Assembly: GCA_973895155.1 (NCBI GenBank)
Contig: OZ316896.1
Coordinates: 22,835,722-22,899,721, forward strand
Direction of reading: 5' to 3'
Length of the DNA: 64,000 bases
DNA from: Marsupella aquatica
Taxonomy: Eukaryota > Plantae > Marchantiophyta
Under the pieces are notes generated by a model. That model made no database searches, had not been told where the DNA came from, and saw only the letters and a program-made list of their open reading frames with translations. The position numbers and the translations under genes are program-made. Positions 30,101 through 51,166 of the stretch are shown piece by piece (the first letter of the stretch is position 1; every line of letters starts with the position of its first letter).

Positions 30101-32508
30101 ATAGCTCGAGCCTTCTCCGTGATAATGCTATTTGAGCGCTCTGCAATACCATTTTGCGTATGATGGTAAGGAGCTGAATGTATCATGCGACACCCCTTCT
30201 CTGCAAGGAAAGTACGAAACAGTGTGCTGCCAAATTCGGTACCATTATCACAGAAAACTTCCAAAATAGTGGATGAGTACTGATTCGCAATAGCAGCAAA
30301 GAATTGTTGAAGAACCACTACTGCTTCACCCTTGTTATGTAGACACGAGACCCATCGATAACGAGTATGATCATCAGTGATCAAAAGAAAATACTTCATG
30401 TTACCCAAACCGAGAGACGACATTGGTCCACAAAGATCAAGATGTATTCTCTGAAAAGGTTTGGAAGCACGAGTATGTTGTTCTCGACAAATGATAGCAG
30501 ATTTGGCCAAAGCACAGGGTTCCCATGGCACAAATGGAGCAGAGTCAGTAAGATGAATCCCTTGGCTCTGAATGAAATGTTTCACACCATCAATGTGTAG
30601 GTGTGCCAGGCGCCTATGGAGAGTATTAAGATTGAAGGTTTGAAGAGAGAGAGTACTGTTGAGAAGATCTGCAGCAAGAGCTGACTGAACACGGAAAACC
30701 TTAAGACCATCCACTTTGGTAACACAAGCAAACTCTTGACCGCTAGGGAGAAGGACAAATTTAGAGTGCCGGCCTTGCCAGTACACACCCCGCTGTTCAA
30801 GAAGATGTTCAGAGATAGTGTTAAGAACACTTGTAGGCATATAGCGTACATTATTTAAGCGTATTGGCCTAAATGTCTGATCAGTACACTGAACATGTAG
30901 ATCAATATTGCCATATCTAGGAGATATGATGGACCCCGCCCCGGTGTTGATGGAGATAGGATCGACGATGTATTGTTGTATTAGCTTTTGATTATTGCAT
31001 AAATGATGATTGGCTCCGGAGTCAGCGATCCAAGTATCTTGATCAATTAAAAATGCTGCTGCAAAATGAGCTTGATGCGCAAACTGAACAAAATTAAACA
31101 CATCCAGCGACACTGATTCGGTTGGAGTGGGAATTGAGGCAGTCGTCTGAACATTGTTGACACCTCGTAGCCTCTCCTGTATTCTCTGCATTGTAATAGT
31201 ATTTGGTTGCCATCCAGGTCTACGTAGATGGACATGTTTGTAGTAGCACATCTCTTCCCGATGTCGAGGCAGCCGACAATATGGACAGATTTCCTTGCGT
31301 GGTGCAGCATTAGGAAGAACAGCGCGAGTAAACGCAGGAGTTGCCACAGCCACTTGAAGTGTAGGTGGCTCGCGCTCAGTTTTACGATGCCATTCATCCT
31401 TTGCTTCAAAGATAAGAGAATCTAACGAAGGTGCATTGGTAGGATCACGATGCATTAACTCCCGCTTAGAAAAAGCCCATTGATCGAAGTGTCCATCCAT
31501 AATACGAATGAACTACATGATTTGAACTGTAGGATCAATCGTGATCCCAGCCGCGGTGCAATGATCAATAGCTTCTCGGTAAGCAATGTCGAACACTTCC
31601 ATCTTTTCCCCACGATAATGAAGTTTCACAAAATGAACCCAATTATCATGTTTCTGTAACAAACCTTGCGGTTGATAGGTCTTCTTCAAATGATCCTAAC
31701 ATTCTTTAGGCGTAGAGATGGTGGCCAAAGAAGTCTAGATATGGGGCTTACAAGTGGAGAGAATGAGCATGCGTGCATGAGCACCCTGCGCTGTGTAGGT
31801 CTCAAGCCGCGCCTGAAAATGGTAGTCACGTTCATCGACATCTTGTAACGGAGGAATGGAATCTTGTAACTTTCCAAACACTACCAGCGGCCAAGCTCGC
31901 AGAGACCAGCATTTGCCAAGCTTCGTAGTTGGCATTGCCATCAAGTTTTGGGACAAAATGAATAGTATGATCGCGATAAGAGAGTGACATGATTCCAGAT
32001 AATTGAAAAAACAGATAAGAATTCTAGCCCGAAAGAACGCAAGTTTGCACTAAAACGAAGATGTTCAAGAAGAATCAAAGAAATTCTAGGCCCATAACCT
32101 GTGATTCTACAGAACAAACAACAAAGGATGTGCAAGAACAAAAATGGTGCGCATGACAAGAGCTAGGAAAAGCAGGAATTCTATAATTCTGTATTCTGCA
32201 GATGAACTGCACAACTCCACGAAGGGGAAAGATAAAGGCCACGAACAGCCCTGCGACCAGGAGACACACAGCTAGGGCGCGGCAGAGATTCAAACCAAAC
32301 AAGGCACGTTGCCCTTGCTTCTCATTGTGGCAAGTGGCAAGTTGCACTTGGTGGAGTGCAAAAGAAAAGCTAAAAGTGAAAACGTAAGTAGGGCTAAAAT
32401 CTGATGTAAGAGTAAAACATATCTCCCTAGATAGAAAGAGATCGACGATCAGGGATCAGACTAAAGAACTGGTCGAGCAGAGAAGAGAACAGGGCATTCC
32501 CTGTCACA
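27194..32508 (-). mobile_element. Full-length but decayed Ty1/Copia LTR retrotransposon
   Basis: 409-bp LTRs at 27194-27602 and 32100-32508 (TG...CA, about 12 mismatches); TSD aaatc/aaatt with empty site gaaatcgaaac in the paralogous repeats; PPT at 27603-27612; PBS GGTTATGGGCC at 32089-32099. Confidence 0.95.
27603..31956 (-). pseudogene. Copia gag-pol polyprotein with stops and frameshifts
   Basis: Zinc knuckle CPYCRLPRHREEMC, protease WIADSGANHH, integrase HRRLAH...DLCGP...DNGTEF...NGIAERSN, RT KARFVARG/LYGLRQSPRLWY/WVDD, RNase H STSGY/DNKPAL/KHIDIQWHFVR; order PR-IN-RT-RH. Confidence 0.93.
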
Positions 32509-33597
32509 AAATTGAAACAACGCTCATCAACTATGCTCACAGAACTAATATCTTCTCCTTCTAAGGGGCGGCATTGAATGGCGAGACCCAAAAATTAGGC
32601 AGCAACAAATGAGTTTTTGAGGAAAGCTCATCCAGATTCTAATTCGATGTGACTTATAATATTCGAACCGATCATGTAGTTGAGAACACGATTTCGGACC
32701 GACCGAGAAGTGTGTCGGAGTTCTCGTTTAGCCCGATCCCCTTTTTTTTCTAAGGCAATGCAATGACCGATAAAACTAGCAAAAACTCTCCGAAACGCCA
32801 CTTTCCTCCATTGCATCGTCGTGGGAATGCAGGGAGCGATACGTGCATCGGGTTTTACATTCCGTCAGTGAAAAAGTCCGAAGTGCAAGTAACTTGGTCC
32901 GAACCGCGTAATCCAGGAACGACCACGCACTAACCCAGGTAAAGGGGAAACTTAACCATGGTTAAGGGGAAATTAACCATGGTTTAGAGCGTCTCCTATA
33001 TAAAGAGGAGCGGGCTGCCCATAAAACGTTTGCTTTCGCTAGAGCAAATATCTCCTGACTGAGAGCGAATACCAAACTCCCATAGAGTCTTACATTCCTC
33101 CCAAGCGATTCGACTCTTTCTACCGAAAACCTGATAAATTTATTGAAACAGCCATTCCTGTTCAAGTTCTCCATGTAAGACTGACTAGTCATTTAGTGTA
33201 AAATGTCCCGATCCGAGCGGACTGCGATAAATTTATCGCATTCTGCATTCCTCTGTTGCAATCATTTGATCCAGTGTTTAGAGAGGTGTTGCCTTCATTC
33301 CGATAAATTTATCGGAGTCTTCATTCCTTTCATGGAAAGAGGAGTAATTGAGAATCCGATAAATTTATCAGAGTTGTCATTTTTGTGAAAGATTGAATTC
33401 AGGGCTTAGGTGTCTGAGGAAGTCATATTTTCAATTCAAATGCGGAGTGCGATAAACTTATCGCATCCTCCTGTGAGAATCATTTTCCTTTGTTTTGTTT
33501 GGAGACTCATCTTCATCTCTGATGTCGCAGTGTTGCCGGGTTTAGGAGGCACAACGGAAGGTCGATTGCACTCCGTGGACAACAGGTATTGTGACAA

Positions 33598-33927
33598 ATG
33601 GCTGTCTTCCTTGAAAATCGTGTCAAACGTGCACGCCGGTTGTACAAGAAACTCGTGCGACTCAAAGTTCTCCCCATTGGTATAAGAGCATTGTGGATGG
33701 GTGGTACTGATCCTGGAGACAGGCAGAATCCTCTTCGCATTGAATTCTGCGGAATGAATGATGCAAGAGTTCCAATTCGTTCGAGGTTGATGTTAACGGC
33801 GTGTTTATATTCTTTGGAGTTTTCTTGTAACTATTGTTGTCGTCGTCTTGACAACAAGTACCACAAACAGGCTCACTTCTGTTGTAAGATTTGGAACGAA
33901 GACCCTTGGGTGAACCTTTCACGATGA
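33598..33927 (+). CDS. Hypothetical Cys/His-rich transposon cargo ORF (109 aa)
   Basis: ATG-initiated ORF inside the TE with CNYCC...H...HFCC; no family recognised. Confidence 0.35.
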   Translation: MAVFLENRVKRARRLYKKLVRLKVLPIGIRALWMGGTDPGDRQNPLRIEFCGMNDARVPIRSRLMLTACLYSLEFSCNYCCRRLDNKYHKQAHFCCKIWNEDPWVNLSR

Positions 33928-34121
33928 GTGTTTCGACCTTTTCATTGAGGCGCGTCTTGTAAGGACATATTTAAATAAACAAGTCCTACCCTTGCGTAGC
34001 GAATATAATACGTCACGAGTCCTAATCGTTAAACTGTCGTGCAGGGTTGGTACTATGGATGTGTTCGGTTACACCTGGTGATTGAAGGTATTTTTATTGG
34101 TGGTTTTGGTAGCTTTGCTTC

Positions 34122-34660
34122 ATGGCTGCATCGGAGAATCTAATTGTTGCAAAGATGGGATCCGTTTTAGCCCACGAGCGTAGGAAATATATTCAAGGAA
34201 AAGTGCCCGGTGTGGAATGCGGAAGTTTGTTGAATGGACTTCCCGATCAACTCGTTGAATCTCACATTTGGCCCCTCCTAGCCTTGTCTTGCACACAAGA
34301 TGAACACCTTGGCCTTGACCTAAAACTTCTACCAGAAGAACGACTGACTCGAATGAGAACAATCATTTGTCTTGGAGCCACCTCAAAGAAATGGAACCTG
34401 TTGTTGGTACACGATTTTGGGCGCTATTGAAATATGCAGTCCGTGAGATCAATGACATAAACAAAATGCTCGCAAGCATTCCTAATGCCGACCTTCTCTC
34501 AAACATACATATTGCTAGGGTCTTCCGAGAGGAAACTCATTTCCTCCCTCCCATAGATATGCTTGGGTGCTTTTCGTATGAGCAATTAGATCAGTTTCGT
34601 AGAGTTTGGATAAATCATGGAAAAAGCGGGAAGCGGACAATTCTTGCATGGCATGGATGA
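34122..34660 (+). pseudogene. Transposon cargo ORF with F-box-like motif, frameshifted
   Basis: LLNGLPDQLVESHIWPLL...LGATSKKWN resembles an F-box; continues in overlapping ORF 34367-34660. Confidence 0.45.
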
Positions 34661-34981
34661 GTCTGAGTGGATGAGGCATTGCTGCAAACATCCGATAAAT
34701 TTATCGCACTCCTCATTCCTCTAGTCAATTTTGGGTGCTCTAAGGTTTGCTCGAGAAGAGCTTGTAAAGAAACACTTTGAATGTAATTGACTCTGCCTCC
34801 CCTGACTTCGGGTTGTGTGGTCCAAAGTGTATTTGTTTGCGCCTCTTTGGACGATTAGCTGACAAGTGCATTGGCTTCACAGCCCGTTATACAAGGTACT
34901 GTAAAGTTGGATGAAACTTGTAGAATTGTAATTAGTATGTTCTCCAAAATTTATTCCTGATTTCTATTCGATGATCAGGCC

Positions 34982-35998
34982 ATGCTCGAGCGACGCATTT
35001 TTGTACCCTACTTGGATCCTCCAGAATGGGGGAATGGAGCCATGCTGGACCAACTAAGGAGGCTGGATGAGTCACTAATTTTAAAGATATGCAGGCTGGT
35101 AGTAAAACCATTTTACCATAACGCATTTCACTTCTACGTAGATCAGGTAGGGGGAGAAATTTATATTCGGTGGGATAGATATGTTGGATTTTCTAGAAGA
35201 GTTATCCTACTCTTTCTGAAAACCGGTGCAGTAAGACGTTTTATACTCCACTGCTGTCATGTTGTGAAGGGCAATCCTGCTTATGAGCCAGAATTCTATG
35301 CCGACAACAGACGTAGAGCATTTGATGAGATTCAGGATGTGATTGCTCGGGGGTTTCACTTCCACAAAAATGGCATATCACGTGCGACGAAGGATAGGGT
35401 CATTTTATTGGTTGTAAGGGAAGACTTAAGAATTTTTGTAGAAGAACAATAGGGTCTTTTAAATTCAATTTTGAAACTTATAAGAACATTAGGGCCTTTT
35501 TAATCCAATTTTTGGAATATTCTAAGAATATTCCAACTTTATAGGGGTTAAAAAATAATATTTTTTTCTTACATTTTAGGGGGTCCAAGGCCTAAAAACG
35601 TCGCAGGTGATGGGGAGGTCCCCATGTAGTGAGACCCCCGAGTGTGATTGACGAGCTGGACAATCCTCTTGCCACCGAGTTTTTTATTGACACTGGTGGG
35701 AAACTATATTCATACAAGATTCGTCAACTCCCCCCAGCCGGTCTGTGCGCTCTTTAACTTGATCTATGTAAGTTGCCTGTGGACGAACGTCCTTGCCAAT
35801 GGTGAGATCTGTCCATGCTGCACAAATGCTTGTTGTGACATTCCGTCACGCCGGTATTCAGTAGCAGTAGTGAATCCTGAGACTGGTGAAGTTGATTTCC
35901 ATTGGCTGTGGGCTTATGATCATCGCGTCACTCATATTCCCCAATGGCCCAAGAAGCGGATTGAACGCTTTGCTCTGGCGAGGTTCAACTATGATTAG
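34982..35998 (+). pseudogene. Transposon cargo ORF interrupted by a MITE; Cys-rich C-terminus
   Basis: ORF 34982 reads into the MITE at 35346; after excision it continues DELDNPLATEFF, and one more frameshift joins it to CPCCTNACC of ORF 35648-35998. Confidence 0.5.
35346..35642. mobile_element. 297-bp MITE, copy A
   Basis: TIRs CTCGGGGGT(T/C)TCACT; 8-bp TSD tgtgattg at 35338-35345 and 35643-35650. Confidence 0.92.
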
Positions 35999-38456
35999 GG
36001 TTTAGGTTTAGGGGTTAAGGTTTTGGATTTAGGGTTCCGAAGCTGATTCTTCGACCTGTACACTCGGCCGTCAATTTAAAGAAGGCTCACTTTTGCAATA
36101 ATTTTATCGGTCATTTGCATTGCGGATCTCTTTGTCCTTGTGTGATGAGATGTCGTGTCCACATGTGCTGTGAGATTGGCGGCGATAATTTTATCGCTCT
36201 TTGCATTGGAATTTGTTTATTTGCAGACTTTGCCATGGCTGCTAGTGGAAAGAGTGGATCTGCTGAGGCAGAAAGTCTCATGACAAGCCTCACCAATGCA
36301 ATTTGGACAAGTGAAGACATTTGTGAAGAGGTCAAGTGTATCAAGAAGTCATGGTACTTCCGTGACGCCAGATTACAGTCCACGGGTTTTGAAGATTGTG
36401 CTACCCCAATCCTTTGGGTCCAGTTGCAAAAATTGGCGAAGGTTAATGTTTCGTATGGCCCTGTCATTGCTGTTGCCGTCGTTGAGTTCATGGTTGGCCA
36501 CGGGGAGGGAAAAGTGTTGACAGAGGGCCTTAGTTTCTTGACAATGTGTGGGCGCAAGGGTTTCACATCTCTCATTGTTACTCTCGATAACTTTGATGAG
36601 AAATCGATGGACAGTTATCCAGAAGATCCCCTTGTTGCCGAAGTTCGGGCAGCAAGAGAGATGAATGTTATGGGTTCGGCTTGGATCGGCCAGTATGTGC
36701 AAGATTGTGATGCCATCATGCTTCCAAGGGTGAACGCAGAGTACAAGAGACTTGTGGGTGAAGAGTTCAAACCTGTCCGCAAAATTGTTTTCAAGAAACC
36801 AGGTTCAAGTGGCAGCGGTGGTTCTAATGCCGATAAAATGTCGGGGCGGAAAGAACCATTGCAATCCTCTACACATATTGACGTGGACGAACCTACAACT
36901 TCTGGTCGGGTTTTGGGAAGTGGAAGAGGGAAAGGGAGAGGTAGCGGCAGGGGAGATGCTGTGGGAACCTCTGACGGTGGGAAGAAGAGCCAGGAAACTG
37001 GCGGTAGTGGGAGAGGCCGGGGCAACCGTCAAGGACCATCCGTTAAACCAAGCAAAAATAAAGGATCCGAGGGATCCGGGCCATCTGGTTCTGGACTTAG
37101 CACAAAGAGGAAGAGGACTGGCTGGACTGAGACGATGGCTGCAGAAGTAGATAGAGCTCCGTCAATTCCATCAGTTCCAGTCGCGGTTCCTGCGGCGCCA
37201 TTGGTAAGTACTACGTTGTTGTACTGTTTAACAAATACGAAATTCGATAAAAATCTCACTGTTTATTTCCTGAATTGTGGATTGTGGAGTTATGTTGAAC
37301 AAATGCAAACTCCGATAAAAATCTCACAGTTTCTTTCCTTAATTGAATTTGCAACGCTTTTGTAGGCTGATCAGGAGGAGGAGACGGTTCTTTTGATGTA
37401 TGAGACGGACGCAATCAAGGCAGAGCTCAGTCTTCTGATGCAACAAAGGGTGCAAAGGACAACTGTGCTTCTGCATGTCGACAATCTCATATTTGATGAG
37501 GAGGGGGATTTGTCAACTTTGATTAGACCAGTGGATAGATTTCATGTGGAAAATATCAAGATACTTCTCATGAAAAACCCCACCAACTTCAGTGCCCCGT
37601 TCGTGCTGTGTGTGGATCCGAAGGATTGTCCCACAACCGCAGATTGGGACATCCTGAAGTCAAGGGTATGGAACTTGTATAGAATTATTGGAGGGAATCA
37701 TGGTGCTCGGGCAAAGTCCGAGTCGTTTAAAATATACGGGAAGCAAATATATGGTGAGCTGGAAGCTTGGGTTTACGCTGGGCTTACGAGATCCGAGGTC
37801 CGAAAGTTAGGCTTCCAGCATAACTATGACCAGGAGTATCGGAAGAACATGACTAAAATTGACCAAGTTCGCGCTTGTCACAATATTTTCCTTGAAATGG
37901 GTGTGGGCTCGACTAAAGATGTCCGCAAAGCATGTTGTCAAGAATGCATGATGGAGTACACGCCAGGAGTTCGTGACTCCATGGCCAAACATGATCCGGC
38001 TTTCCAAATTGTTTTCCGAACAGGTGAAATTTGGGATCTTCAGGAGCAGATTTTCCAGATGTGGGAGAAAGGTATTGTCTTAGGACAACCCAAAAAAATT
38101 GTGGCAACGACGAACGCAAAGGGAAAGGTAAAACCTTTGATGGTAAGGGAGATTAAAATGAATAAACTTGCTGGTGACCTCAACTTAAATTCATTTCGAG
38201 GTCTCCAAGGACTGTCAAATAAGGAGCATGTCAAGCGTCTCTTGAATAGGGTTATCGGGAAGGTGATCACTTTGGATCAAATGCACAAGGAAGGTGAGAA
38301 GTTGAAAAAGCTTGCCAAGGTGAAGAAACTATTTTTGCAGATATCTGGTCAGCCAGATTGGGCAACATGCAGAGAAATGTTTCCCAACAAAACAGATGTC
38401 TCGGTCCTTGGCATATGGGCGGAGAAATTGAATGACCCGGTAAGCATTCCTCTCAC

Positions 38457-38719
38457 AGCATGCTCTATCGCAAGATTTTTATCGGCTTTAGCATTCCTTT
38501 GTTGGTTTCTAAGCGATTGCATCTATCAGCTAGCGTGCTCCATTGCGAGATTTTTATCGGCTTTAGCATTCCTTTGTTGGTTTCTAAGCGATTGCATCTA
38601 TCAGCTAGCGTGCTCCATCGCGAGATTTTTATCGGCTTTAGAATTCCTTTGTTGGTTTCTAAGCGATTCCATCTATTGGCTAGCGTGCTCCATCGCGAGA
38701 TTTTTATCGGCTTTAGCAT
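38457..38719. repeat. 75-bp tandem repeat (about 3.5 units) in intron 2 of the ParB-MTase gene
   Basis: agcgtgctccatcgcgagatttttatcggctttagcattcctttgttggtttctaagcgattgcatctatcagct repeated. Confidence 0.9.
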
Positions 38720-39016
38720 CTCGGGGGTCTCACTATATGGGGACCTCCCCATCGCCTGCAACGTTTTTAGGCCTCGGACCCCTTAAAATGTAAGAATTTT
38801 TTTTAATTTTTTAACCCCTATAAAGTTGGAATATTCTTGGAATATTCTAAAAATTGGATTAAAAAGACCCTAATGTTCTTATAAGTCTCAAAATTGAATT
38901 TAAAAGACCCTATTGTTCTTCTACAAAAATTCTTAAGTCTTCCCTTAGAACCAATAAAATGACCCTATCCTTCATCGCACGTGATATGCCATTTTTGTGG
39001 AAGTGAGACCCCCGAG
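38720..39016. mobile_element. 297-bp MITE, copy B (inverted relative to copy A)
   Basis: TIRs CTCGGGGGTCTCACT; 8-bp TSD tttagcat at 38712-38719 and 39017-39024. Confidence 0.92.
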
Positions 39017-42000
39017 TTTAGCATTCATCTCACGCTATTCTAATTGTAGATGTGTCTGACATTTTTACAGCTGAAGATTAATTCAAAAAGGAAAAGCAAA
39101 GTGGTTCCGGCTATCACTTATAATTCTGCGGGGGAGGTTATTGTTCCCTTAGCTGAAATCCCTTATGTGTTTAAGAATTTTGTGTTTGCTGCAATCGATA
39201 AGTACAATCGGCTGAGGTCCTTAGGCGAGGGCACAGCAGAAGCGTTTGAACAAACATGGAAAAATGCAGACGGGGATTCTTTTCCCTACTATCTCCATGT
39301 TGGTGATGTTCGAATTTTGGATTCTTTTGTTCAGCCAAGGGCTTACACCCTTGCGGTTGCGGATATTCCGTATGGTTAATTTAATGCTCCTGGTTCGGAG
39401 TTTGATGAAGTGGCCTTCACAGAAAAGGACATTTTAGACATGTTGACAAGTTTCTCAAAGATGACGACCGCTAAGCAGTGGAGGTTTGTTGTGATCCATT
39501 CACTACAACAAACGCATATGGTGATGTCTGCACTGGAGAGTGTATGCAACTGTGGGGTCGAGGCTAGAATCTGGGAGAAGACTAACATTCATGAGCGTCC
39601 CGCTGGAGCTCGATTGGCGTGGGGTTTTGAGAACTGGTCGATAGGTTTCTATAGCGAGGAAGGCATTCGAAACATGGACATGTACAATTTCCAACCGGAT
39701 GAGTCTTGCGTCAATATCATCAAGGTTCCATGTGTAACCAAGAAGTCCGTTGATCCGTTGGGATTTGTTGTGAACCCGTATCAGAAGCCTGTTGGTTTGG
39801 GGGCTTGGTTTGTTTCCCATTTCTTTGAGAAAGAGGATTGGGTTATTGATCTTTGTTGTGGAACCGGATCGACATTAGCTGCTACGCTCCTCAATTCTCG
39901 CCAGGGTTGTGCTGTTGATAAGAGTTCTGCGCAGATTGATTTTATGAAATCCTGGATCATGATTCTGGAGTCAAACTGGAATTTATATGAAGAATCCCAG
40001 ATTGAAGGGCACGGCGTTGAAGGTCATGAGATTCAACCACCAATTGCAGGCCAATTGGGTGTTCTCGGGACATCAACTTACGTAGTTGAGTTCGTGAAGG
40101 AGACCGAAGAGGAACAAGAAGAAACTGAGGAAGAGCCTCCCAGAACACCAAATGAGGATGATTTCAACGACATGTTATTAGATTAGTTGCGTGTGCTCGT
40201 TAGGATAATGTCAATCACCAATGGAGTTGTCGATAAATTTATCGGATTCTGTATTCCATGAGGAAGAACCTTTGTCACCTTTATTAATGCGATAAATTTA
40301 TCGGACTTTGCATATATCGGACTATCGCGGTGTTCTAGCTGGGGGAATGGAGTTGTCGATAATCTTATCGGACTTAGCATTGTATGCTCTAATTGGTTTG
40401 TCATTGCAATTATTTCAAAAAAAAAGATATCATTATAGCTGCGGAGTACATAGTCCCAGAACGATAACCACTGTACATATTCATGGGAACGATAACCATT
40501 ATAACTTAAACCTGCAACAAGCTTCGACTATCAACGACTACAGTCTCCATTGCATTTTGAATGATTCGTCTTGTTTGTATAGGGAGAGTACTATTTGCCA
40601 ATAACACAAAGTTATACGCATAAACGGCAGTTTCTGCTAGGGACAATTCATCCTCCAGTACTTTGCTAGACGAAGCCTCTTTCTCCGGATAATATCTGCC
40701 TTCAATTGCAGACTCTTCCTCCGAATCCATTGCATACCAAGTGATTTTAATCCGCTCCGGGATGTCGTTAATTCTTGTGAGAATCTCAGTCACTTTTGCC
40801 ATCCAGAATGGTCTTCCCTTGGGATCCTGATGGGCTGCTACACATATCATTGCAAATTTAGTATTCACCTCTAGATCCTTGAAGTCTCCAATTTCTGTGA
40901 CTTTTCTTCGACTTCCGGAATACATGACTGTCCTCACACCCGCTACTTTATCAACCAAGCTAGGTTCCATTGCTGCTTTCGTAGGATTACTCGGAAGTTC
41001 TCTCTGTACGTTTACCTTGGGCCAACTCCAATCGAAACTCCATTGTGCAGGTTTCAGGTGGTGCTGAATCACTTCTTTTTGTTTGTCAAAAAAACGACCC
41101 CACCATAGACGATCTTCATCGTCAAAGTAATTGAATCCATCTTCAATTGCTCTTCGATATTTTTGAAGAGTTGACAAATAACTTTGAGCCGCCCGCTCAT
41201 CTTGTTCCTCAACATCATTCTCTTGCTCTTCATTGTCTCCTGTCGCTCCCGTGGCCGACTTCAATGCCATTTGTGGTGCAACCCACATTCCAGATGATGG
41301 AATGTACCGAACAAAATCCACTGTCTCCCCCCAATCGGTTGTCGTTGAAAGATGTTTGGCATGGAATACGGACCGAGCACTTCCATCTTCGAGTACTCTA
41401 GTAATCCAAAATTGTTTTTGAGCACTTATGCCGTGGAGAGTACGTAGAACCTGACCATCCATATCCTTGTCATTTGCTTGATCCTTGTCTGACACAAATT
41501 TCTTGAAATCGGCAACCTCGTCGACGAAAAATATCTTTGCCATAGGATTGTAGGATTCCTCTATGATTGCTGAAAGAGTGTCCAACCAGAAAGCTTTCCG
41601 CTTGTTCAATTTTGAAGAAAACTTGCTAAACATTTGATCAATTTGATCATGGGTGTGCCCCACCAATAGGAAACCAACCTTTATTTTCTGGAAAACACCT
41701 ATCTCCACCAACATATTCAAATATGCCATAAGATATTTATTCTTGTTTTCCCGAGCTGTGTTATCAAGCTAGAGGTAAAGCACTGGAGGGAACAGACCTT
41801 CCCAGGTATTCAGAATATGCTGGATAACGTGGATGGTCAGGTTGCTATCATTGTGAATATTTGGATAGTTCAAAAAAACATTTGAACTTAATTTTTTGTT
41901 GAAGATCAAACAACCCACTACATGTACGGGGATGAAATACTTTTCATCCATATTCTTCGGACACCGAATGAAATGAGGTAACTCTGTCTTCTTTTGATCC

Positions 42001-42170
42001 ATTCCATCAATACAGATGCCCAAATATTTCTCCGAATTCTTGTAACATTTGCTCCGGTGCTTTGCTAACTTCTCCCTCTCGACTGCTTGTGCCTTCCGAT
42101 GCTCGTTTAGCAATGTTGAGAATTTTCCTACAATAATAAAAATGTTTAGGACAAAACATGATAACCGCAA

Positions 42171-42335
42171 TGTTGAACCCTGACAGCGATAAATTTATCG
42201 GGTTCAGTATTCAAACACGAGACCGTAATGATAAACCCTGACAATGATAAATTTATCGGGTTTAGTATTCAAACACAAGACCGTAATGAAAAACTGTGAC
42301 AGTGATAAATTTATCAGGTTCAGTATTCAAACTTT
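42171..42335. repeat. 58-bp tandem repeat (about 3 units) in the transposase intron
   Basis: aaccctgacagcgataaatttatcgggttcagtattcaaacacgagaccgtaatg repeated. Confidence 0.85.
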
Positions 42336-43209
42336 CAAACGATATATTCACTCATATGGCCAAAGAAGAAGCACATGAATACTCAACCCGATAAAATTAT
42401 CGGGAGTAACACACAGGTTTAGAAACTTACTCTTTTCTACTTCGAGTGTTGCCTTGTCACAGAGTGCTTTGAATTCAGTACACGGGGCGCAGGTGGAGAA
42501 ACGGCTCCTTTTGGGGATGCGCACGCGAGGAAACTCCTTGTTCCAAATGCGAACAAACCACGAATATGTCATGCCTTGTTCTTGGCGCATTAGAGTTTCG
42601 GACTGGAAGGCATCAAAAACTTCTGTTTTTGTCCAATTGTCAGGTAAGTGAAAGATATCCTTGTTGGGGAGACTCTCGACATTTGTGGAAAAAAAATCAT
42701 CCAGCCATTGGACGAGACCAAGATGTGCGGGTGATTTTTCTCGACAAACTGTACCGATCTGTATCTGAGAAAACATGTTCTGCGAGATTTTTTGGAGACG
42801 ATTATTTCCTAGTGAAAATAATTTCTTAAAACCACTCCGTCAAAAGGATCTACCGCTAACTGAGTAACCACTTGCACCAGCATGCCCACCCTTCACACAT
42901 CCTCTAAGAAGGACGTTTTTCTTTGGGTAGGATAGCCCATAGTAATAAGTGCGTTGTTTTGTCACGGCTAGCAGACCCAAATTCCTCAGACAGTAATTAT
43001 CACAACACGAATACTTATGAATTTCTCTCATTTTGTTTCTATTCAATTTGTCATTTATCACATTGTCTTTCCTAGTAATTCGGTCCCTATCTTTTTTACT
43101 AGGCTCATTTGACTTCTCTACAGCCTGAAATCCGTTCATAACATTGGCATTTTTGGGTCCTTCAGGTGCCTCGCGAATAGATGCATCACTCTCTGCTGAG
43201 CTACCATCC

Positions 43210-46200
43210 TGTCACTTGCCTATCCAACGATTAATACGTGCAACCCGTACTATCCCTTGCTTAAACCGTTGGTATCGTATTACGGGGTCGTGGAGGGACG
43301 CTATTTGGAGGATTTCCACACCTAAGGATGAGTATGTTTGATTCCGCTCCCGAAAGTGTACTTTTTGATCAAGTCTACCGACTGGTCTCTCCGTTTTTGA
43401 TCAAGTCCAAGGGACTGGTCCTACCATCTACAACTCATGCCCACCGGGTGAGTGCTGTCACCACCCCCCTCCTCTCTTGGGCAAGCATACCAACATTTAC
43501 AATAAGATTTGAACTGTCGTATAGTGCTAAGTATCAAAAGTGACTCTTCTCACCTAAAACCAGGGTTTCGATCCCTTAAAGAACAGATTTCAGAATGAAT
43601 TGTATAACTTTTATCTCTCGGAGTGATTTAGAGCCCTGAACTCTATGCTGAATTCACTTTTCAACGAAAAAATCAAATAAACAAACCACCAAGTAACTGA
43701 ACTTCAGATTTATGAATCAAAGAAGAAATGAGTAAGAATTTAGAGACTACAAGCTGCTACTGCCACTCCTTCAGAAAGGATCTGGGCTCAGTATAGACAT
43801 GAAATCTGTCTCATAATTCATCAATCTCACATTTCAAAACACCAAGGTTAATGATAATGGAATTCTCAATCTAGAAGCTTTCTGGTTGCAAATGAATGAT
43901 ATGATTTAAAATGCCGTCAACATGGTTTGACGTCAGCGATGCGCAATTCAGTCAAACTCTAAACCATATTCCAGAATCAAAACAACGGTACTAACTATTC
44001 TGAGAATCAGAATTTACTTCTCATTTATCAACAACTAATCTTGAATTGGCTAGCGAATCTTGACTTCACAAGTAAGCCTAGCAGTGAATTCAATTGGAGT
44101 ATCAGAAGTCTGCAACTGAATTCAATCACCACAGGAATTTCTTGAATTCAATCTCAACTTCAATCAATACAGCTTTACTTCCATACAAAACACTCACAGC
44201 ATGCCTTGTTACAATGGAAGGAGGAGAAAACTATTCAGAAGACTTAATTCTGAATAGAGTATTAAGTCTATTTCTCTCCCCGAAAATGAGCACTCTACTC
44301 TGTCTTATAAGTGCTGGAATCCAAAAATGGAGGAGGCAAGAACAGTCGTGCCTTTCCAAGTTTAAAACTAAACAAGGGAGAAGTACAGCATAAGTACTGC
44401 CAGGGTGGCAAAATACTACTCTACTAGTAATCTACTTCAAAAAACTAAGTCTAAGTGTCGAGTGGACGCTGCTAGAAGCGTCTTAAGAAAACCAACGGAC
44501 GCTGCTCACAGCGTCAATACTAGGGTGGACGCTGCTCACAGCGTCGTGTGTTGAAGCGGACGCTTTGCACCGCGTCGGTCAAAATTCTCATAGAGTCTTG
44601 GTGGCGGTGGGGCAAAGTACACTAGGAATCGTCAGGAAAGCCGGAGATGTCAAATATTTCAATAAGTGTCCAGAACAAGTAAATGTTGGCCAGGAGGCGT
44701 CTAAAGTGTAAGTAAATCTTGAGATATGCCAAAAATAAACAAGTTTCCAGAAAAAATTGCAGGGACACCCATACCACATGAACACTAGTGACAAGGGCAA
44801 ATGTTTCCACAACGACACCGACCACACGCACTAGGGGAGGAAAACAACCAACACAAGCAACAACAAGTGACACACAAAATATTGGAACCTCAAGCCAAAT
44901 CCATATCTCTTGGTGTTTCCCGTAACACATGCAAGGACAACCCGGCCTCCTGCCGTCTGCCCAACTCCTGCCTCCCGGGGACAAGTGCTACGTTCTCCAC
45001 CTCACTACTCTGGCTTGAACTTCTCCTAATCGGTGCGCTACTCACAAAAGCTACTCCAAAGCATCCAAGTACTACGCTGAGTTCCCCCCCTCACTACTCC
45101 GGGGCTCTCCCCCTAAATACCAAAAAAACCACACCAAAGCACCCCTCATGGGGTCACAACGATGGCGGCTACCCTAGCGGCGCCGCTAAAATCCTGTACT
45201 AAGAAATCCCTAAACTAAAAAGGCATGCGGCACACACATGCTGCTAAAACCCTAAACCCTAAACAAGGGGTCGACGGTGCCTTCGACGGCGCCCCAACTG
45301 TACACAGTGAACCCTGAAATTGCAAGGCACCCCACAATGGCCGAAACTAGGTGCCCTATCAATTGTACTTTTGAGCTCACCCTTGGATAGCCCTTCTCCT
45401 CCTGATCCCGAATCACTCAACCGTACTCGCAACGGACATCGGACGCCTGAGTTATGGTCGTTTCCGTATCGCGAAAACACAATTTCGCCGGGCCATAACT
45501 TGCTCATCCTGGCTCCGTTTGAGGAGCGCCGCCTCTTGTTGGAATCAACTCCGCGAGCTCTTTCCAACAAGCCCGTGAGTGACCCCTCAAAAAAAGTTGG
45601 AAATCCAGAGGCCGTACAACCACATCCGTACGACTATCTACTCCTCCTCTTCTTCACTCTCGGTGCCCTGGCTTGTGCCCCGTGAGTGGGCCTCCTCTTC
45701 ATCACTCACGGGAGTGAGTGCCACCTCACTTTTCTTCTTCTTTACCGGGGTACTCTGCTCTAACGTCTCTACTCTGGCTGTGGCGTGCTTGAGAGAATCT
45801 CTCAATGCGTGGACTAGCTTGAGTCCCTCATGGACTCCCTCTCTGAAATCCCGTAGCTCTGCCAGGTAAACATCCGGAATGTTGTAGACCAGGGGCTTTT
45901 TCGGATCTCCCACGAGTGATTCAAGCCACTCCAACGTGTAGTCCTCATCCTGGTTTTCTTCTCCTCTATCCCCACCAGCCGACGATGATTCCTCCGTGAG
46001 CTTCCCTAAAACGGTAGTGGCAATACTCTGGATCTCCATGGTGAGAGATGATCCCGTGTCTTCCTGTCCCGGGGAACCAATCAACCCTTCTGCCCTGGCC
46101 AATACAAATGACCCCATCAAATGTACAGCCCCACCTGGTTTCACACTCCCGGGATCAGCGGCCAACAGCTTCTTCAACCCGTAGTACCACCATCCGTACA

Positions 46201-48330
46201 CATGGGCTGGGTGGTTCTTGATGTCCATAGCTACCACAAAATGCTCTTCATTCACCACCCCGGATTGCACATTGCCAAGGACCTGTTGATGAACCTTGGC
46301 CAGGAATCCCTTATAGTCAACATCCTTGACAGCGTAAAGAGGGATGGCAGTGGTTGAGGTGGGATTAATCACCCAAGTGGCCACCATCTTCAACGTGAGT
46401 TCTCCCCTAATGTGCCGAGGTGTGAATGAGAATTTCTGATTGTCCAGAAACAACAGCCTAGCCAACTCCACATGGGGCACTACACGTTTGAGACATTCAA
46501 AGTAGATTCCCTCCGTTCGTAACTCCATCCCGGCCTCAATGTCCCAGCTCTTCTCCGGAGGGATGGTAATCTCCACCTTCATGAATTTTGTAACCCCGGT
46601 GGCTTGGAAAATATTCCGACAATCCTCCATCACCTTGGCGGAGGTCTTGGGATAAATTCGACAAAAAATCCTCCTACCCACCGGTGTGGAACCTGCTGCC
46701 AATCCCATGCTCATCGTAGCTTCTCTCTCTTCTCTCTCCCTTGCAATCAAAGTCTCCACGTAGTCACGGTAAGCAGCCTTGTATCTCCGAATGCGTGCCA
46801 CACTAAACTCCGGTTGATCTAGCATTCATGCATCCCGAAATCAAATCCTCAATCACCAAATCCCGTCACCCGTAGCAATGTCAATTCCCTAGCCCAAACA
46901 GCCCCCGTAGCCCGATCAATCAATCAACCTCCTCAATTCCCTCAGAAGCCACTCCGTGCTGCTACCGCTAATGCCCGGAAGAATCATGCCAACAAGCCCC
47001 AACAATTGACCAAGAGAAAGAGCTTCCAGAATAATTGCAAAATGTGGAGAGAGCTTTCGGCAGAGCAAGAAGTCACGCAAAAAGAAGGGAGGCAAAAAAA
47101 TGAAATACAAAGAAAAGGGGAGAAAACCCCTTTCTTCACCCTTCCCAACAATCCTTTGTCCTGGCTCCCCTCACGCCATACGCCCCGGCTCGCGGCCCTA
47201 TGCAGGGCGCACACAAGCTGACACGCGGCTGTCGCTTCCCCGTTTCTCGCCCGCCGTGCCCAGTACTTGCCTCCCACTAGTCGGGGAGCATTTACTCCCC
47301 CCGTACCTCTCTGCCTTGGGCCTCCGCGCCCCCCCGTTTCCTCCTGCAGCCCCGCGCCCTCCTCCTGCTCGCGGGAGCCCTGGCTTGCCCCGGCTTGCCT
47401 CCGTACATGGCACGCGGCCCTATGCAGGGCGCACTGCCTCATTACTCCCGGCCTCAGCCTCCCATCTGTTCCTCCCGGCTGTCGTTTAGTCCCCCTCATG
47501 GGAGGGTACAGGGTGCCTCCCCTATCCCAGAGTGCTGCGCCCCTTTTGGGGGATTTAATTTTCTCCCCTGGCATCCTCTCTCACAGCCACCCCCGCTCAC
47601 GGGCTCACGGGAGGGTTTAATACCCCCCCTTTACTCCTCTTACTCCTCGGCTGCGGCCCGGCTGCCCAACTCCGAGCACCTTGGCTTGCCCCGGCTCGCC
47701 CTCTGCCAGCCTGGGGATTCCATGTGGCGGCCCTAGGGCTGCCCCTTATGGGCTCCCAAGTGCTCGCCCTCTGCCAGGCCACTTTAAGGGGCATTTAACC
47801 CCCCTCCGCGACCTCTCTGATCACCGGCCTCCTGCTACCCCGGCCTCCTCCTTAGTACTCGCGGTGTCCCATAAGGGGGAATTTTAATTCCCCCCCCATC
47901 CCCGAGCGCACCCCGGCTCCGCCGCGCCTCGCTACGGTAGCTCTTTTGGGGGGGTTTACCTCCCCTACAGCCTTACCTTAACGCTCCCCCCGGTGGCGCC
48001 TCGCTTTTCCCTTATTCCGTAAAGGTTAGCACTCCTCCTAATCCTTATTTGGGGTCTCAACGAAAGAAAGAGGGAATCAGGGCCTAAGGGAAATAGGGGG
48101 TCCACTTAGACCGACCCTAGTTTCAAGGTCCCAACATCCTGGCTTACTGGGAAGCCATAGGCCTCCAAACTATTAGGATATCAAAGAATGTCAAGACCTC
48201 CTGGGCATAGCAACCGATAATGACGGTCGTAACAAAAAAACAAAAAAACGGCTTATTTACAATGGTTATTTACACTCACAACACCCCGCGACCATTATTC
48301 GTGATTTTGAGTGACGGGGACCCCGTCACA
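43210..48330. mobile_element. 5.1-kb nested insertion, probably a very long solo LTR
   Basis: TGT...ACA termini; perfect 5-bp TSD catcc at 43205-43209 and 48331-48335; no terminal direct repeat or pol motifs seen. Confidence 0.8.
45638..46825 (-). CDS. Uncharacterised 395-aa ORF inside the solo LTR
   Basis: Intact ATG-initiated ORF with a coiled-coil-like segment, basic PVKKKKSE and an acidic tail; no family recognised. Confidence 0.55.
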   Translation of the reverse strand: MLDQPEFSVARIRRYKAAYRDYVETLIAREREEREATMSMGLAAGSTPVGRRIFCRIYPKTSAKVMEDCRNIFQATGVTKFMKVEITIPPEKSWDIEAGMELRTEGIYFECLKRVVPHVELARLLFLDNQKFSFTPRHIRGELTLKMVATWVINPTSTTAIPLYAVKDVDYKGFLAKVHQQVLGNVQSGVVNEEHFVVAMDIKNHPAHVYGWWYYGLKKLLAADPGSVKPGGAVHLMGSFVLARAEGLIGSPGQEDTGSSLTMEIQSIATTVLGKLTEESSSAGGDRGEENQDEDYTLEWLESLVGDPKKPLVYNIPDVYLAELRDFREGVHEGLKLVHALRDSLKHATARVETLEQSTPVKKKKSEVALTPVSDEEEAHSRGTSQGTESEEEEE

Positions 48331-49489
48331 CATCCTCTATAGATCTCCTTGACGCATTTAGAGGGGCACTGAATAGACGACTATAACTATTCTCTTCGAC
48401 AGCTCCTTCTAAACATTCAGACACAACTTGTGCTATTATATCGGATTCTCTATCTCCTTCCTCATCTTCGTCCTCCGATGCACTCGACTCATCTGAAAAC
48501 ACAATTGGACTCCGTGGCTCTCTATACATAACCCGAACGCCACTAAGACCTCTCCTCGATACTTGGAGCCTGGAACCAATGATAGTCCGCCCTTGAGAAC
48601 TTGGAGATTCTGGATTCGCACGTGCAGTCCCAACGACTCCGCGAGCTGCTGGAAAATTGAGCACTTGTTCACCACGATTCCCACGAACCATTCGAGAAAG
48701 GGCCGAGTCTGGACTTCGCAGTCTGATTCCCTTGCTTGCTCGCACATCCAGTCCAGGCAATGCAAAGACCGATCGCCGTATCAGTCTTTGTATTTCTGTG
48801 TTCCGATCCTTACCTGGAGACTGAAAGATCCGTCGTTGAACTTGTGTTGAATGTGGCGACTTGATTGCCGACTGCGATACGCGTATCGGTCATCGGATAC
48901 CCTCTCCATAACCCAGGATGGATGGCTTGAAGCGATGTCTCGGACCTAAACCTGGGATTGAAAGTTTCTCATTTCTTGGCGATGGAACGCTCAAGAGACG
49001 ACGCTTCTCAGGTTTACTAGGCGACACATAGTAAGCACTGGGCTTAGGACCAGAACTTGCATCAGAATCTGAGTCAGAGATTTCGGGCACTATTTGCTGT
49101 GAGAGAGGTAGAGCTTTAAGTATGCGACTTGGCAAACAGCGAGCGACAAGATTAGGAGAGGATTCAACTGAACTGGAAGGAGAATCTGTGTCTGATTGAG
49201 ACATGGCTATTCGAGACACTATGGGGCTTTGCATTCCTCCCGCAATCAGGGAAAACGAAAGGCTCAACGGACAAAATGTTGCTCCAAGAACACAACTCCC
49301 AAAACTCTACTCTCGATAATGACGCCAAAAACTTATCGGCGGTGGCCCTTTTATAGTGTCTATTGAGGGGTTGGCCCACGTGTCCACTTTTGATTGGCTG
49401 TCACCCTAAACGACAAAATAGCAGAAAAGGGTATATTTCTTGGATTTCCAATTTCATTCTCACACGTGCATCGTGGCAAAATTATATAG

Positions 49490-49705
49490 TTTTGAAATTG
49501 AAGCGATAAATTTATCTAATGTTGGTATTGCAAAAGTGGTTCCTTCATATGGAAGTTGCAATTTGAAATTGAAGCAATAAATTTATCTGATGTTGGTATT
49601 GCAAAAGTGATTCCTTCATATGGAAGTTGCAATTTTGAAATTGAAGCGATAAATTTATCTGATGTTGGTATTGCGAAGAGTTTTCTTCATATGGATAGGA
49701 ATTTT
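49490..49705. repeat. About 71-bp tandem repeat (3 units) in the right subterminal region of the TE
   Basis: tttgaaattgaagcgataaatttatct...ggtattgcaaaagt...catatggaagttgcaa repeated. Confidence 0.85.
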
Positions 49706-51166
49706 GAAATTTAACCGATGAACCGAAGGATCTTAGTATTATCGACTAGTATTTTTGTCGCCCGTATTTTCGATAATTTTATCGGACTGCGCATTGCTGT
49801 TGAAAGAATGGCATGTTGACTATATGGTCACTTGCGGAGGTAACTGGTCAATTGCGGAGGTAACTGCAAGGTAAGTTTGACGAACCGTGCAGTAATTCTT
49901 ATCGACTGTGATGTAAAATATTTTTGGTAAATATCCAAAAACTGAGAAAACTGAGATTGGGTCGGAGCTTTCGTGGCTCAAATCCGGAGTCCGATACAGT
50001 TATCGCACTTGGCTCGAAACGTGGATATGGATTTATAGATAAGACCTTTCATATATCTTCGGAGAGCGTGAATATGAGGTTGAGGAGAAAGTTTTTCGGA
50101 TCTAATTGTTCCTTGATAATATGAATGTTTGTTAGTATGAATTTCATTGGTTTTGATCATTATTAAATTTGCTGTTTCAATCCGAACTCCGATACGAATT
50201 ACATTATTTCCCCAAAAATGTGTTTTTGATGAAAAAAACTGTCGATTTCGCGAGATTCGGCGGAAAATGAAAATACACTTCTCGTTTAGAGGAAATAGTT
50301 CTCGTTCGGTCCGAAATCGTGATTGAGGTACTTAGGGTAAATGGTGAGCAAATCCCCCCTTGTCTAGTCCTTCAGATTGGGGCTGGCACTTTGTGGTGTC
50401 TATGAGCAGTACTGTATTATTTATACAGAGTCGTTTCTGACTGAGATGCTTGTTCGAATATCAGAGTAAGGATTTATATGTTGCCCAAGAACGGAAATAC
50501 ATGTAGAGATCGGGGCAAAGTTTCAACCTGAAAACAAGCTGCAAAATGCTGTAGCGTCCTTTGACAACAACTAGAAGACGACTTGTTATTGCTTAAAGCA
50601 CACGTGCCACTAGAAAAGCCCCATTCCATGTCTCATTACTCACCATAAAAGGTGGAACACTAAGCACCTTTTATGGAACACTTGCTAATGAAAGGTTTTG
50701 CACTCACCACTTCTGTGCAGCTCAAAGCACATTCTTGACCGTGTGCATCTTACAATGAGAGCTAGGGGCCCGTAGCCGTTTATAGGGGCAGTTGTGGTTT
50801 AACAAACCACGCACAGCAACGTACTCTGAGCTGAACAACGAGTGGCTTAACGCAACTAACCTCAAGAGTCCTCTCTCGATAGCCTCTGGTATATTACTAA
50901 AAATTTGCTTTGACACGTCGAGCGTGTTCTTTCAGTTGTGACCAGCCTCTTTTTGTTTGTGCATGGCTAAAACGCTTGGTGAGTCCCCGGTTGTTCTATC
51001 CAAGAGCTTTCAAATGCAAACGTTTGACCATTTCTGCAAAACAAGATTGTCTAGTCAACTGTCTAGCTGGGTCGACAGACTGTCTCCAGTAAATTAGAAA
51101 ACAAATTGAAGAATGACGAGATTCTTATGAGTTTCGCCGACTTGGGATCCTTTTGAGCGGGAGTCT

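Follow-up and report, generated by a model that had tools for sequence, protein, structure and literature searches.

The 64,000-nucleotide stretch of the liverwort Marsupella aquatica analysed here (contig OZ316896.1, positions 22,835,722 to 22,899,721, forward strand; called the window, with positions counted from its first letter) contains a giant DNA transposon whose non-coding DNA carries many copies of one sequence site. The site comprises a 14-bp core with a YATT arm 7 nt away on one or both sides, has the form AATR-N7-core-N7-YATT (36 bp) where both arms are present, and is thus longer than the 12 bp by which it was first recognized. We regard it as highly probable that the site is functional, and it is very likely specific to its transposon family; function is considered very likely because the sites are confined to non-coding DNA, their frame is kept across families, and their cores have changed less than the rest of the repeat units in which some of them lie. 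The element also encodes a protein that joins a ParB-like part to a predicted amino-methyltransferase (MTase), and this protein is the leading candidate for binding the site. Seven elements were compared, namely the window element and its relatives L001, L002, L003, L004, L005 and L019, with the limits of coding and non-coding DNA placed by hand from tblastn matches and splice consensus sequences.

The site came to notice through three tandem arrays, which Tandem Repeats Finder (TRF), run on the window, places where the original prediction had them: at 38457–38719 (75 bp x 3.5, 94%), 42164–42332 (58 bp x 2.9, 88%) and 49490–49719 (71 bp x 3.2, 89%), all read on the plus strand. With splice sites read from the sequence, these positions correspond to the second intron of the MTase gene, the intron of the transposase gene, and the right arm of the element upstream of the transposase gene, respectively. 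Each repeat unit contains one site, also as proposed. The 75-bp array has four variant sites, the 58-bp array has three, with a fourth, inverted site at 42389, and the 71-bp array has three with a core ending in ATCT. When the site was removed and the units were aligned with one another, with 1000 shuffles for each comparison, the local p values were 0.98, 0.35 and 0.87 and the global values 0.96, 0.97 and 0.17. Because the units without the site align no better than shuffled sequences, the three arrays represent separate duplications, and a single origin of the three units is ruled out. The units are therefore unrelated outside the site, but they share more than the core, contrary to the earlier statement: a 27-nt alignment joins the 75- and 58-bp units, because the site extends beyond the core by 7 nt and YATT. 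The core sequence initially assigned to all three arrays, GATAAATTTATC, is also absent from one of them. Matched at no more than one mismatch, it occurs 17 times against an expected 0.21, always inside the element (33133–49783) and never in the 75-bp array, where the cores read CGAGATTTTTATCG and differ from the 14-bp palindrome CGATAAATTTATCG at three positions (four in the first unit). This variant also occurs twice in MTase intron 1, and a fourth, more diverged duplication in that intron (37225–37345, minus strand, 68 bp x 1.8), absent from the earlier account, has one site per unit with the same core variant.

The arms and the frame of the core define the site independently of any one core sequence. 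A YATT arm accompanies 64 of the 72 sites in the seven elements, on one side in 50 and on both in 14, against a background of 3.4% per side, and the spacer is 7 nt in 66 of 80 arms. Searches of the window for the site at no more than three mismatches and for the right half-core plus arm each gave 25 matches, 24 of them inside the element, and the former gave none in a 5.1-kb nested insert. The strict frame CGA[TG]-N6-[AC]TCG has 17 occurrences in the element, where about 0.3 are expected, none of them in the nested insert, and three in the other 46 kb, where 2.1 are expected. Among the 27 window sites, 15 are outside the arrays, 17 are more than 1 kb from the element ends, 10 are within 1 kb and none is within 300 bp. 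Two further positions, 32837 and 48875, keep the frame with other centres (ACGTGC and ACGCGT); the one at 48875, located within the reading frame of the transposase, is perfectly palindromic and similar to the site of L004. These two may be relics or chance occurrences.

A metagenome scan with a transposase alignment gave 19 related loci, comprising six close ones, with transposases 54–60% identical to that of the window (54–58% in the scan itself), and 13 distant ones. The frame is present in all six close loci (3, 6, 5, 2, 6 and 20 sites; shuffle means, 0.03–0.23) and in none of the 13 distant transposase loci. Its 6-bp centre is AAATTT in the window element, ACCGGT, ACGGGT or ACCAGT in L001–L005, and CCAAAC in L019, and the centres never cross among these groups at one mismatch. 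The expectation that related families amplify different motifs thus agrees with three mutually exclusive centre classes in seven elements. The sites of the relatives share the locations of those in the window: the transposase intron, each of the two MTase introns and the interval that separates the two genes at their 3' ends. The transposase intron has one site in L001, two in L003 and four in the window, whereas the seven introns shown from the distant loci have no such site at this place. Arrays are present in MTase intron 2 of L002 (46 bp) and L005 (45 bp), and these two units are homologous, as none of 2,000 shuffles reaches their alignment score. In L019, positions 1590–2058 hold seven sites of MTase intron 2 in an imperfect duplication of about 188 bp, in alternating orientation.

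ParB-like and MTase exons converge on the transposase gene in L002, L005 and L019, and L001 shows the MTase end, so that a converging ParB and/or MTase gene is reached in four of the six close loci; the sequences of L003 and L004 stop before this region. A profile search found no ParB or MTase gene near any of the 13 distant loci, eight of which have at least 2 kb of downstream sequence. The MTase proteins are 90% identical between L001 and L002 and 81% between L002 and L005; identity is 67–74% for L019 and 62–64% for the window. The likeness of the sites tracks the likeness of these proteins. A different short repeat, AAATTTCGTAG-like, is present in the distant family, downstream of the transposase near the probable element end in L006, L007 and L011; it forms 12-bp arrays in L006 and L007, with a related 109-bp duplication in L011, and these are possibly ordinary subterminal sites.

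That the motif is functional, which had been proposed from the arrays, is upheld by stronger evidence than the arrays themselves. Across the seven elements, 71 of the 72 sites fall in 8,975 bp of non-coding DNA and only one in 22,583 bp of coding DNA. The expectation that the core is better conserved than the remainder of each unit holds for 10 arrays pooled but, over all positions, not for the three arrays alone. In the pooled, gap-aware counts, 9 of 373 core letters and 86 of 1,630 other unit letters are changed (p = 0.02), with the L005 intron-2 array phased such that its core was mostly scored as rest. At non-CpG positions of the three arrays the counts are 0/106 and 24/460 (p = 0.013), and at CpG positions of the relatives 3/86 and 20/130 (p = 0.006). 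Other counts are less favourable. Over all positions of the three arrays the difference is 4/140 in the core and 28/498 in the rest (p = 0.27), which means that these cores are not significantly better kept, and all four core changes fall in CpG; the non-CpG positions of the relatives are flat (2/119 and 30/924, p = 0.57). In addition, the family consensus cores were derived from the same sequences in which sites were counted, which favours the non-coding count, although the frame test is less exposed to this.

Whether the growth of the arrays was selected is a separate matter. The original prediction took the arrays to reflect repeated independent selection for more binding sites. In the strong form of this idea, activity rises with the number of sites and each array was favoured for that reason, as has been suggested for the targets of VANC, which are described as building up through tandem repeats (PMC5735166). 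Such selection may have acted, but we lean slightly against this account of the arrays. With a detector that accepts periods of at least 30 bp and skips gapped duplications (125 bp in L005 and about 188 bp in L019), all nine duplications in the seven elements hold the site, against 3.8 expected with random non-coding placement. The product of the null probabilities is 7.6e-5 for the nine, in which the values for the L005 duplications are slightly low, and 0.007 for the four window duplications; the excess of sites in the window transposase intron over that of L001 and L003 points the same way. When placement is instead restricted to the segment in which each array lies, the null probability for the three arrays holding the site is 0.73 x 0.57 x 0.24 = 0.10 (0.30 for intron 2 of L005), and repeated independent selection is not demonstrated. 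Two of the nine duplications have a null probability of 1, and the L002 and L005 units, being homologous, are not independent events. The association of all nine duplications with the site is largely explained because the introns are small and site-rich.

Other features also tell against selection for more sites. L019 has its 20 sites without any TRF array of 35 bp or more, the one or two sites in the transposase intron of L001 and L003 are not in an array, and two short arrays of the window element (22 bp at 32931 and 20 bp at 49825) lack the site. The left edge of the 75-bp array is 14 bp outside the first core and its right edge falls at the arm of site four, a span of three periods and one site; this extent from site edge to site edge fits slippage between two pre-existing sites. 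The rate of duplication may also have been raised by the palindromes or by a bound protein. In the explanation that we prefer, each array is a separate duplication of a 25–36-bp site present in every non-coding part of the element; short duplications in small, site-rich introns would usually carry a site and would be tolerated or mildly favoured.

The ParB-like/MTase gene (36235–40186, plus strand) has predicted exons at 36235–37203, 37366–38439 and 39050–40186 that encode about 1,059 residues; in this copy the frame is interrupted by a stop at 39377, a position at which other copies lack 3 nt. In the structural model, the accessory protein has a ParB/Srx-type N-terminal fold. The model of exon 2 has a predicted local distance difference test (pLDDT) value of 89, and its best 10 Foldseek matches are all ParB or Noc proteins (E 3e-5 to 1.5e-4). 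VIA-align matches it to PadC with Z 9.8 (root mean square deviation (rmsd) 3.1, 100 residues) and, over both domains (residues 32–316), to KorB with Z 8.3 (rmsd 9.8, 188 residues). The last exon resembles the N6_N4_Mtase profile (E 2e-4; 21.8 bits against a cut-off of 26.7). In all four aligned copies D[IV]PYG is followed by DLCCGTGS, placing the putative catalytic motif before the S-adenosylmethionine (SAM)-binding motif, in the order of the beta class. The Marchantia methyltransferase MpDN4MT1 has a TSPPY motif, and the accessible part of its description mentions no ParB part. A HMMER search with exon 2 gave 139 hits, and seven of 10 homologues that were looked up have names, from Chara braunii, Riccia sorocarpa and Adiantum nelumboides. 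The N6_N4_Mtase cut-off is passed in the same chain by eight of 32 scanned homologues; in P0127 and P0160 the ParB-like domain is joined to SAM or Tudor-like domains in place of a methylase. No match was found by the exon 2 search among long proteins, by tblastn in phage records or by the sequence search of the PDB, and no related locus was found in viral contigs. The nearest Atlas clusters, which serve as leads only, are unnamed phage proteins (0.92–0.94) and DUF3723 (0.91).

The site is probably an operator on which this ParB-like/MTase protein docks. Docking is inferred because of the ParB/Noc-type fold, the precedent for palindrome reading, the mostly internal position of the sites and the kept methyltransferase motifs; ParB and Noc are described as binding palindromes through a helix-turn-helix, with changes of specificity made through four residues (PMC7383237). 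In this view the ParB-like part would dimerize, recognize the 14-bp core through its helical domain and contact the YATT arms, which lie a further turn away. With the protein so placed, its fused beta-class methyltransferase would deposit N6-methyladenine (6mA) or N4-methylcytosine (4mC) on the promoters and introns of the element, a mark that would most plausibly keep cognate copies active despite host silencing by 5-methylcytosine (5mC). Anti-silencing rather than self-repression is a guess made by analogy with VANC. The divergent 6-bp centre would confine each family's protein to its own copies.

Several features speak against this assignment. Searched by itself, the helical part has Noc and ParB as its best matches, but with E about 1 and template modelling (TM) scores of 0.37–0.40, and the match to the DNA-binding domain of KorB (Z 4.8, rmsd 4.0, 109 residues) is at a level common among helical bundles. 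The usual catalytic motif of amino-methyltransferases is DPPY or SPPY, and that found here is D[IV]PY. GERRxR is the phosphate- and CTP-binding motif of ParB (PMC11790492); it is replaced by GGNHGAR in the window, the 10 aligned sequences spanning this position have GGNH[GS]A[RC], and CTP clamping is doubtful because the motif is not kept. Two left-arm genes of unassigned function are further candidate binders. Moreover, the association of the site with the ParB gene is confounded by descent, because the 13 distant loci represent one or two families (blastn joins 12 of them at 80–99% DNA identity) and the divergence of the sites tracks the transposase as well.

The transposase is the main rival binder. 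It, or a left-arm protein, might read the site in the manner of the subterminal repeats of Spm and AtMu1, for transposition or self-activation, with the ParB-like/MTase protein as separate cargo. TnpA and the AtMu1c transposase are described as binding clustered, family-specific motifs and activating cognate copies (10.64898/2026.08.24.746577); the 10 sites within 1 kb of an element end and the matched divergence of transposase and site would suit such a role. However, in the same description that binding is at termini and terminal inverted repeats (TIRs), whereas the sites here are largely internal and stay clear of the outermost 300 bp, and the 13 distant loci have a homologous transposase and no such site. 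On balance we consider this rival unlikely. It is far less credible still that the motif is functionless, a duplication-prone palindrome spread by slippage and descent: core CpGs have decayed in this copy (33132, 33144 and two units of the 58-bp array) and a miniature inverted-repeat transposable element (MITE) has inserted inside one site, but the frame and the 7-nt-spaced arm are kept across families whose flanking intron DNA is otherwise unlike by eye, the L019 site has a centre that is not palindromic yet occurs 20 times in both orientations, and more than half of the window sites are not in arrays.

The element spans 32685–50323, a length of 17.6 kb, or 11.9 kb when three nested inserts are subtracted. 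TIRs of roughly 30 bp are located at 32685–32716 (plus strand) and 50292–50323 (minus strand). The left one is preceded by TGAG at 32681–32684 and the right one is followed by TGAG at 50324–50327, which is the probable 4-bp target duplication; a 5-bp reading, TTGAG, is also possible. The empty target is present in a paralogous repeat at 13577, and the repeat into which the element inserted has four copies in the window. The sites outside the arrays begin with five dispersed ones at 33132, 33225, 33301, 33357 and 33450 (33132–33463), a short way downstream from a TATA-like box near 32997. A single site at 34693–34718 (plus strand) follows the first left-arm open frames, two sites at 36096–36208 (plus strand) lie immediately upstream of the start codon of the ParB-like/MTase gene, and three at 40231–40382, two of them two-sided, are located between the converging 3' ends of this gene and the transposase gene. 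Two more right-arm sites, at 49771 and 49992 (49771–50005, plus strand), follow the 71-bp array.

The transposase gene (40506–49230, minus strand, intron 42128–42430) converges on the three-exon ParB-like/MTase gene and is split by the nested insert. Segments of it match DUF7869 in a profile scan (E 4e-32 and 4e-9), the gene is provisionally Sola-like, and the protein keeps the motifs DGMDQ, DNT and GHTHDQID, which we take to resemble those of Sola. A stop at 41769–41771 is seen in this copy only. The insert at 43210–48330 (5.1 kb), which provides an internal control with no site, has TG...CA ends and a 5-bp target duplication; it contains a 395-codon frame (45638–46825, minus strand) without a Pfam match and a GC-rich stretch at 47–48 kb, and is probably the remnant of a long terminal repeat (LTR) element. 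The MITE, of 297 bp with 8-bp target duplications, has inserted twice, at 35346–35642 and 38720–39016, the latter copy splitting the YATT arm of the last site of the 75-bp array and being absent from other copies of the element. It represents a large family, because its contig depth is far above that of the rest of the element and its flanks are many and different. The two left-arm genes, 34113–34660 and 34980–35998, have no Pfam match; the first has an F-box-like start by eye, and the second, which the MITE interrupts, is cysteine-rich at one end. Elsewhere in the window there are three near-identical F-box/kelch-like gene segments (10102, 21143 and 53873) and, by eye, fragmented copia-like polyprotein frames at 28000–31512 on the minus strand.

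Other copies of the element were compared through contigs over its left part (32600–43300), from 40 of the 1,226 differences listed and with contig depth not equated with copy number. All 30 bins of this 10.7-kb region are covered in runs X1, X2 and X5. Contigs of X1 and X2 span both MITE positions uninterrupted and are without the three letters that form the stop at 39377; at 33132 and 33144 they have C, and with this letter the palindrome is perfect. The element thus fits one decayed member of a family of similar copies.

The design of a giant transposon with a ParB-like protein and a methyltransferase is already in print for algae, in Sola1-1_Ec32 and Plavaka. Sola1-1_Ec32 of Ectocarpus is a giant DNA transposon with an opposite-strand fusion of a ParB-like part to an N4C/N6A methyltransferase of 1,104 residues, close to the length predicted here, which is proposed to bind and modify its own element (PMC12477816). 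The window element has the corresponding features, being longer than 10 kb with TIRs and an opposite-strand fusion by predicted splicing, a fusion layout also present in L002, L005 and L019. The likeness is one of description rather than of aligned proteins; Sola1-1_Ec32 belongs to a brown alga, and the accessible text names no binding site (PMC12477816). Sola elements are described as having a 4-bp target duplication, AWWT or AWDT for Sola1 (PMC3845634); the TGAG of this one insertion fits Sola in length and does not fit Sola1 in sequence. Plavaka elements of red algae, with their PAG2/PAG3 cassette, have a ParB-like accessory protein, a PF01555 methylase and tandem inverted-repeat arrays as the proposed target (10.1101/2025.02.11.637652). 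They differ in their EnSpm/Plavaka transposase, in having ParB-2OG oxygenase and methylase-SET fusions in separate genes, and in arrays that adjoin PAG3 rather than occupying all non-coding segments, with no site consensus in the accessible text (10.1101/2025.02.11.637652). ParB-linked adenine methylases of eukaryotes have been noted elsewhere (PMC4738411).

The VANDAL elements of Arabidopsis similarly have a family-specific motif in introns and upstream regions, often within tandem repeats, but these are Mu-like, their motif is 9 bp and non-palindromic, and VANC, with DUF1985/DUF287, removes 5mC and has been shown to bind (PMC5735166). In the present element the candidate binder combines a ParB fold with a predicted methyl writer. 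DUF1985 and DUF287 were found in none of the 15 frames scanned, with four short frames at 33410–33970 outside the scan. Membership in VANDAL was rejected, as the transposase is DUF7869 with no match to a Mutator-like element (MULE) family; the parallel with VANC is an analogy only. Bacterial ParB, Noc and KorB resemble the present system in their fold and the order of their domains, in using several palindromic sites of about 14 bp and in a specificity that varies among relatives, and KorB acts from distant sites on genes of the mobile element to which it belongs (PMC7383237, PMC11790492). The element shares with parS-type systems multiple palindromic sites of about 14–16 bp, but differs in its altered GERRxR motif, methyltransferase fusion, YATT arms, eukaryotic intron-containing gene and lack of any ParA seen. 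Spm TnpA and the AtMu1c transposase share clustered, family-specific motifs bound by an element-encoded protein, and differ in that the clusters are at termini and the binder is transposase-derived (10.64898/2026.08.24.746577), a terminal concentration not seen here.

The site consensus, the family-specific centres and a description from land plants were not found in open-licence papers, a search that left out Repbase and the supplements of the two algal papers. The most far-reaching version of the proposal is a land-plant transposon clade with a self-addressed epigenetic system, in which a ParB-fold reader of a 36-bp operator with a 6-bp barcode centre is fused to a 6mA/4mC writer that acts against silencing, with selected operator duplication, as an independent counterpart of VANC and a programmable methylase. 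Taken whole, we hold this to be rather doubtful. The more immediate consequence is that the proposal of two 2025 papers, in which ParB-like and methyltransferase accessory proteins bind and modify their own giant algal elements, becomes testable now that a site with family-specific centres has been defined in a plant. Swaps of specificity can be assayed in vitro because the site is explicit, its frame is fixed, three natural centres exist, and ParB-like proteins are available for the window element, L005 and L019. If the enzyme is active, 6mA or 4mC in plants would have a source encoded by transposons, and the system would represent, besides VANC and TnpA, a second route by which transposons manage their own chromatin.

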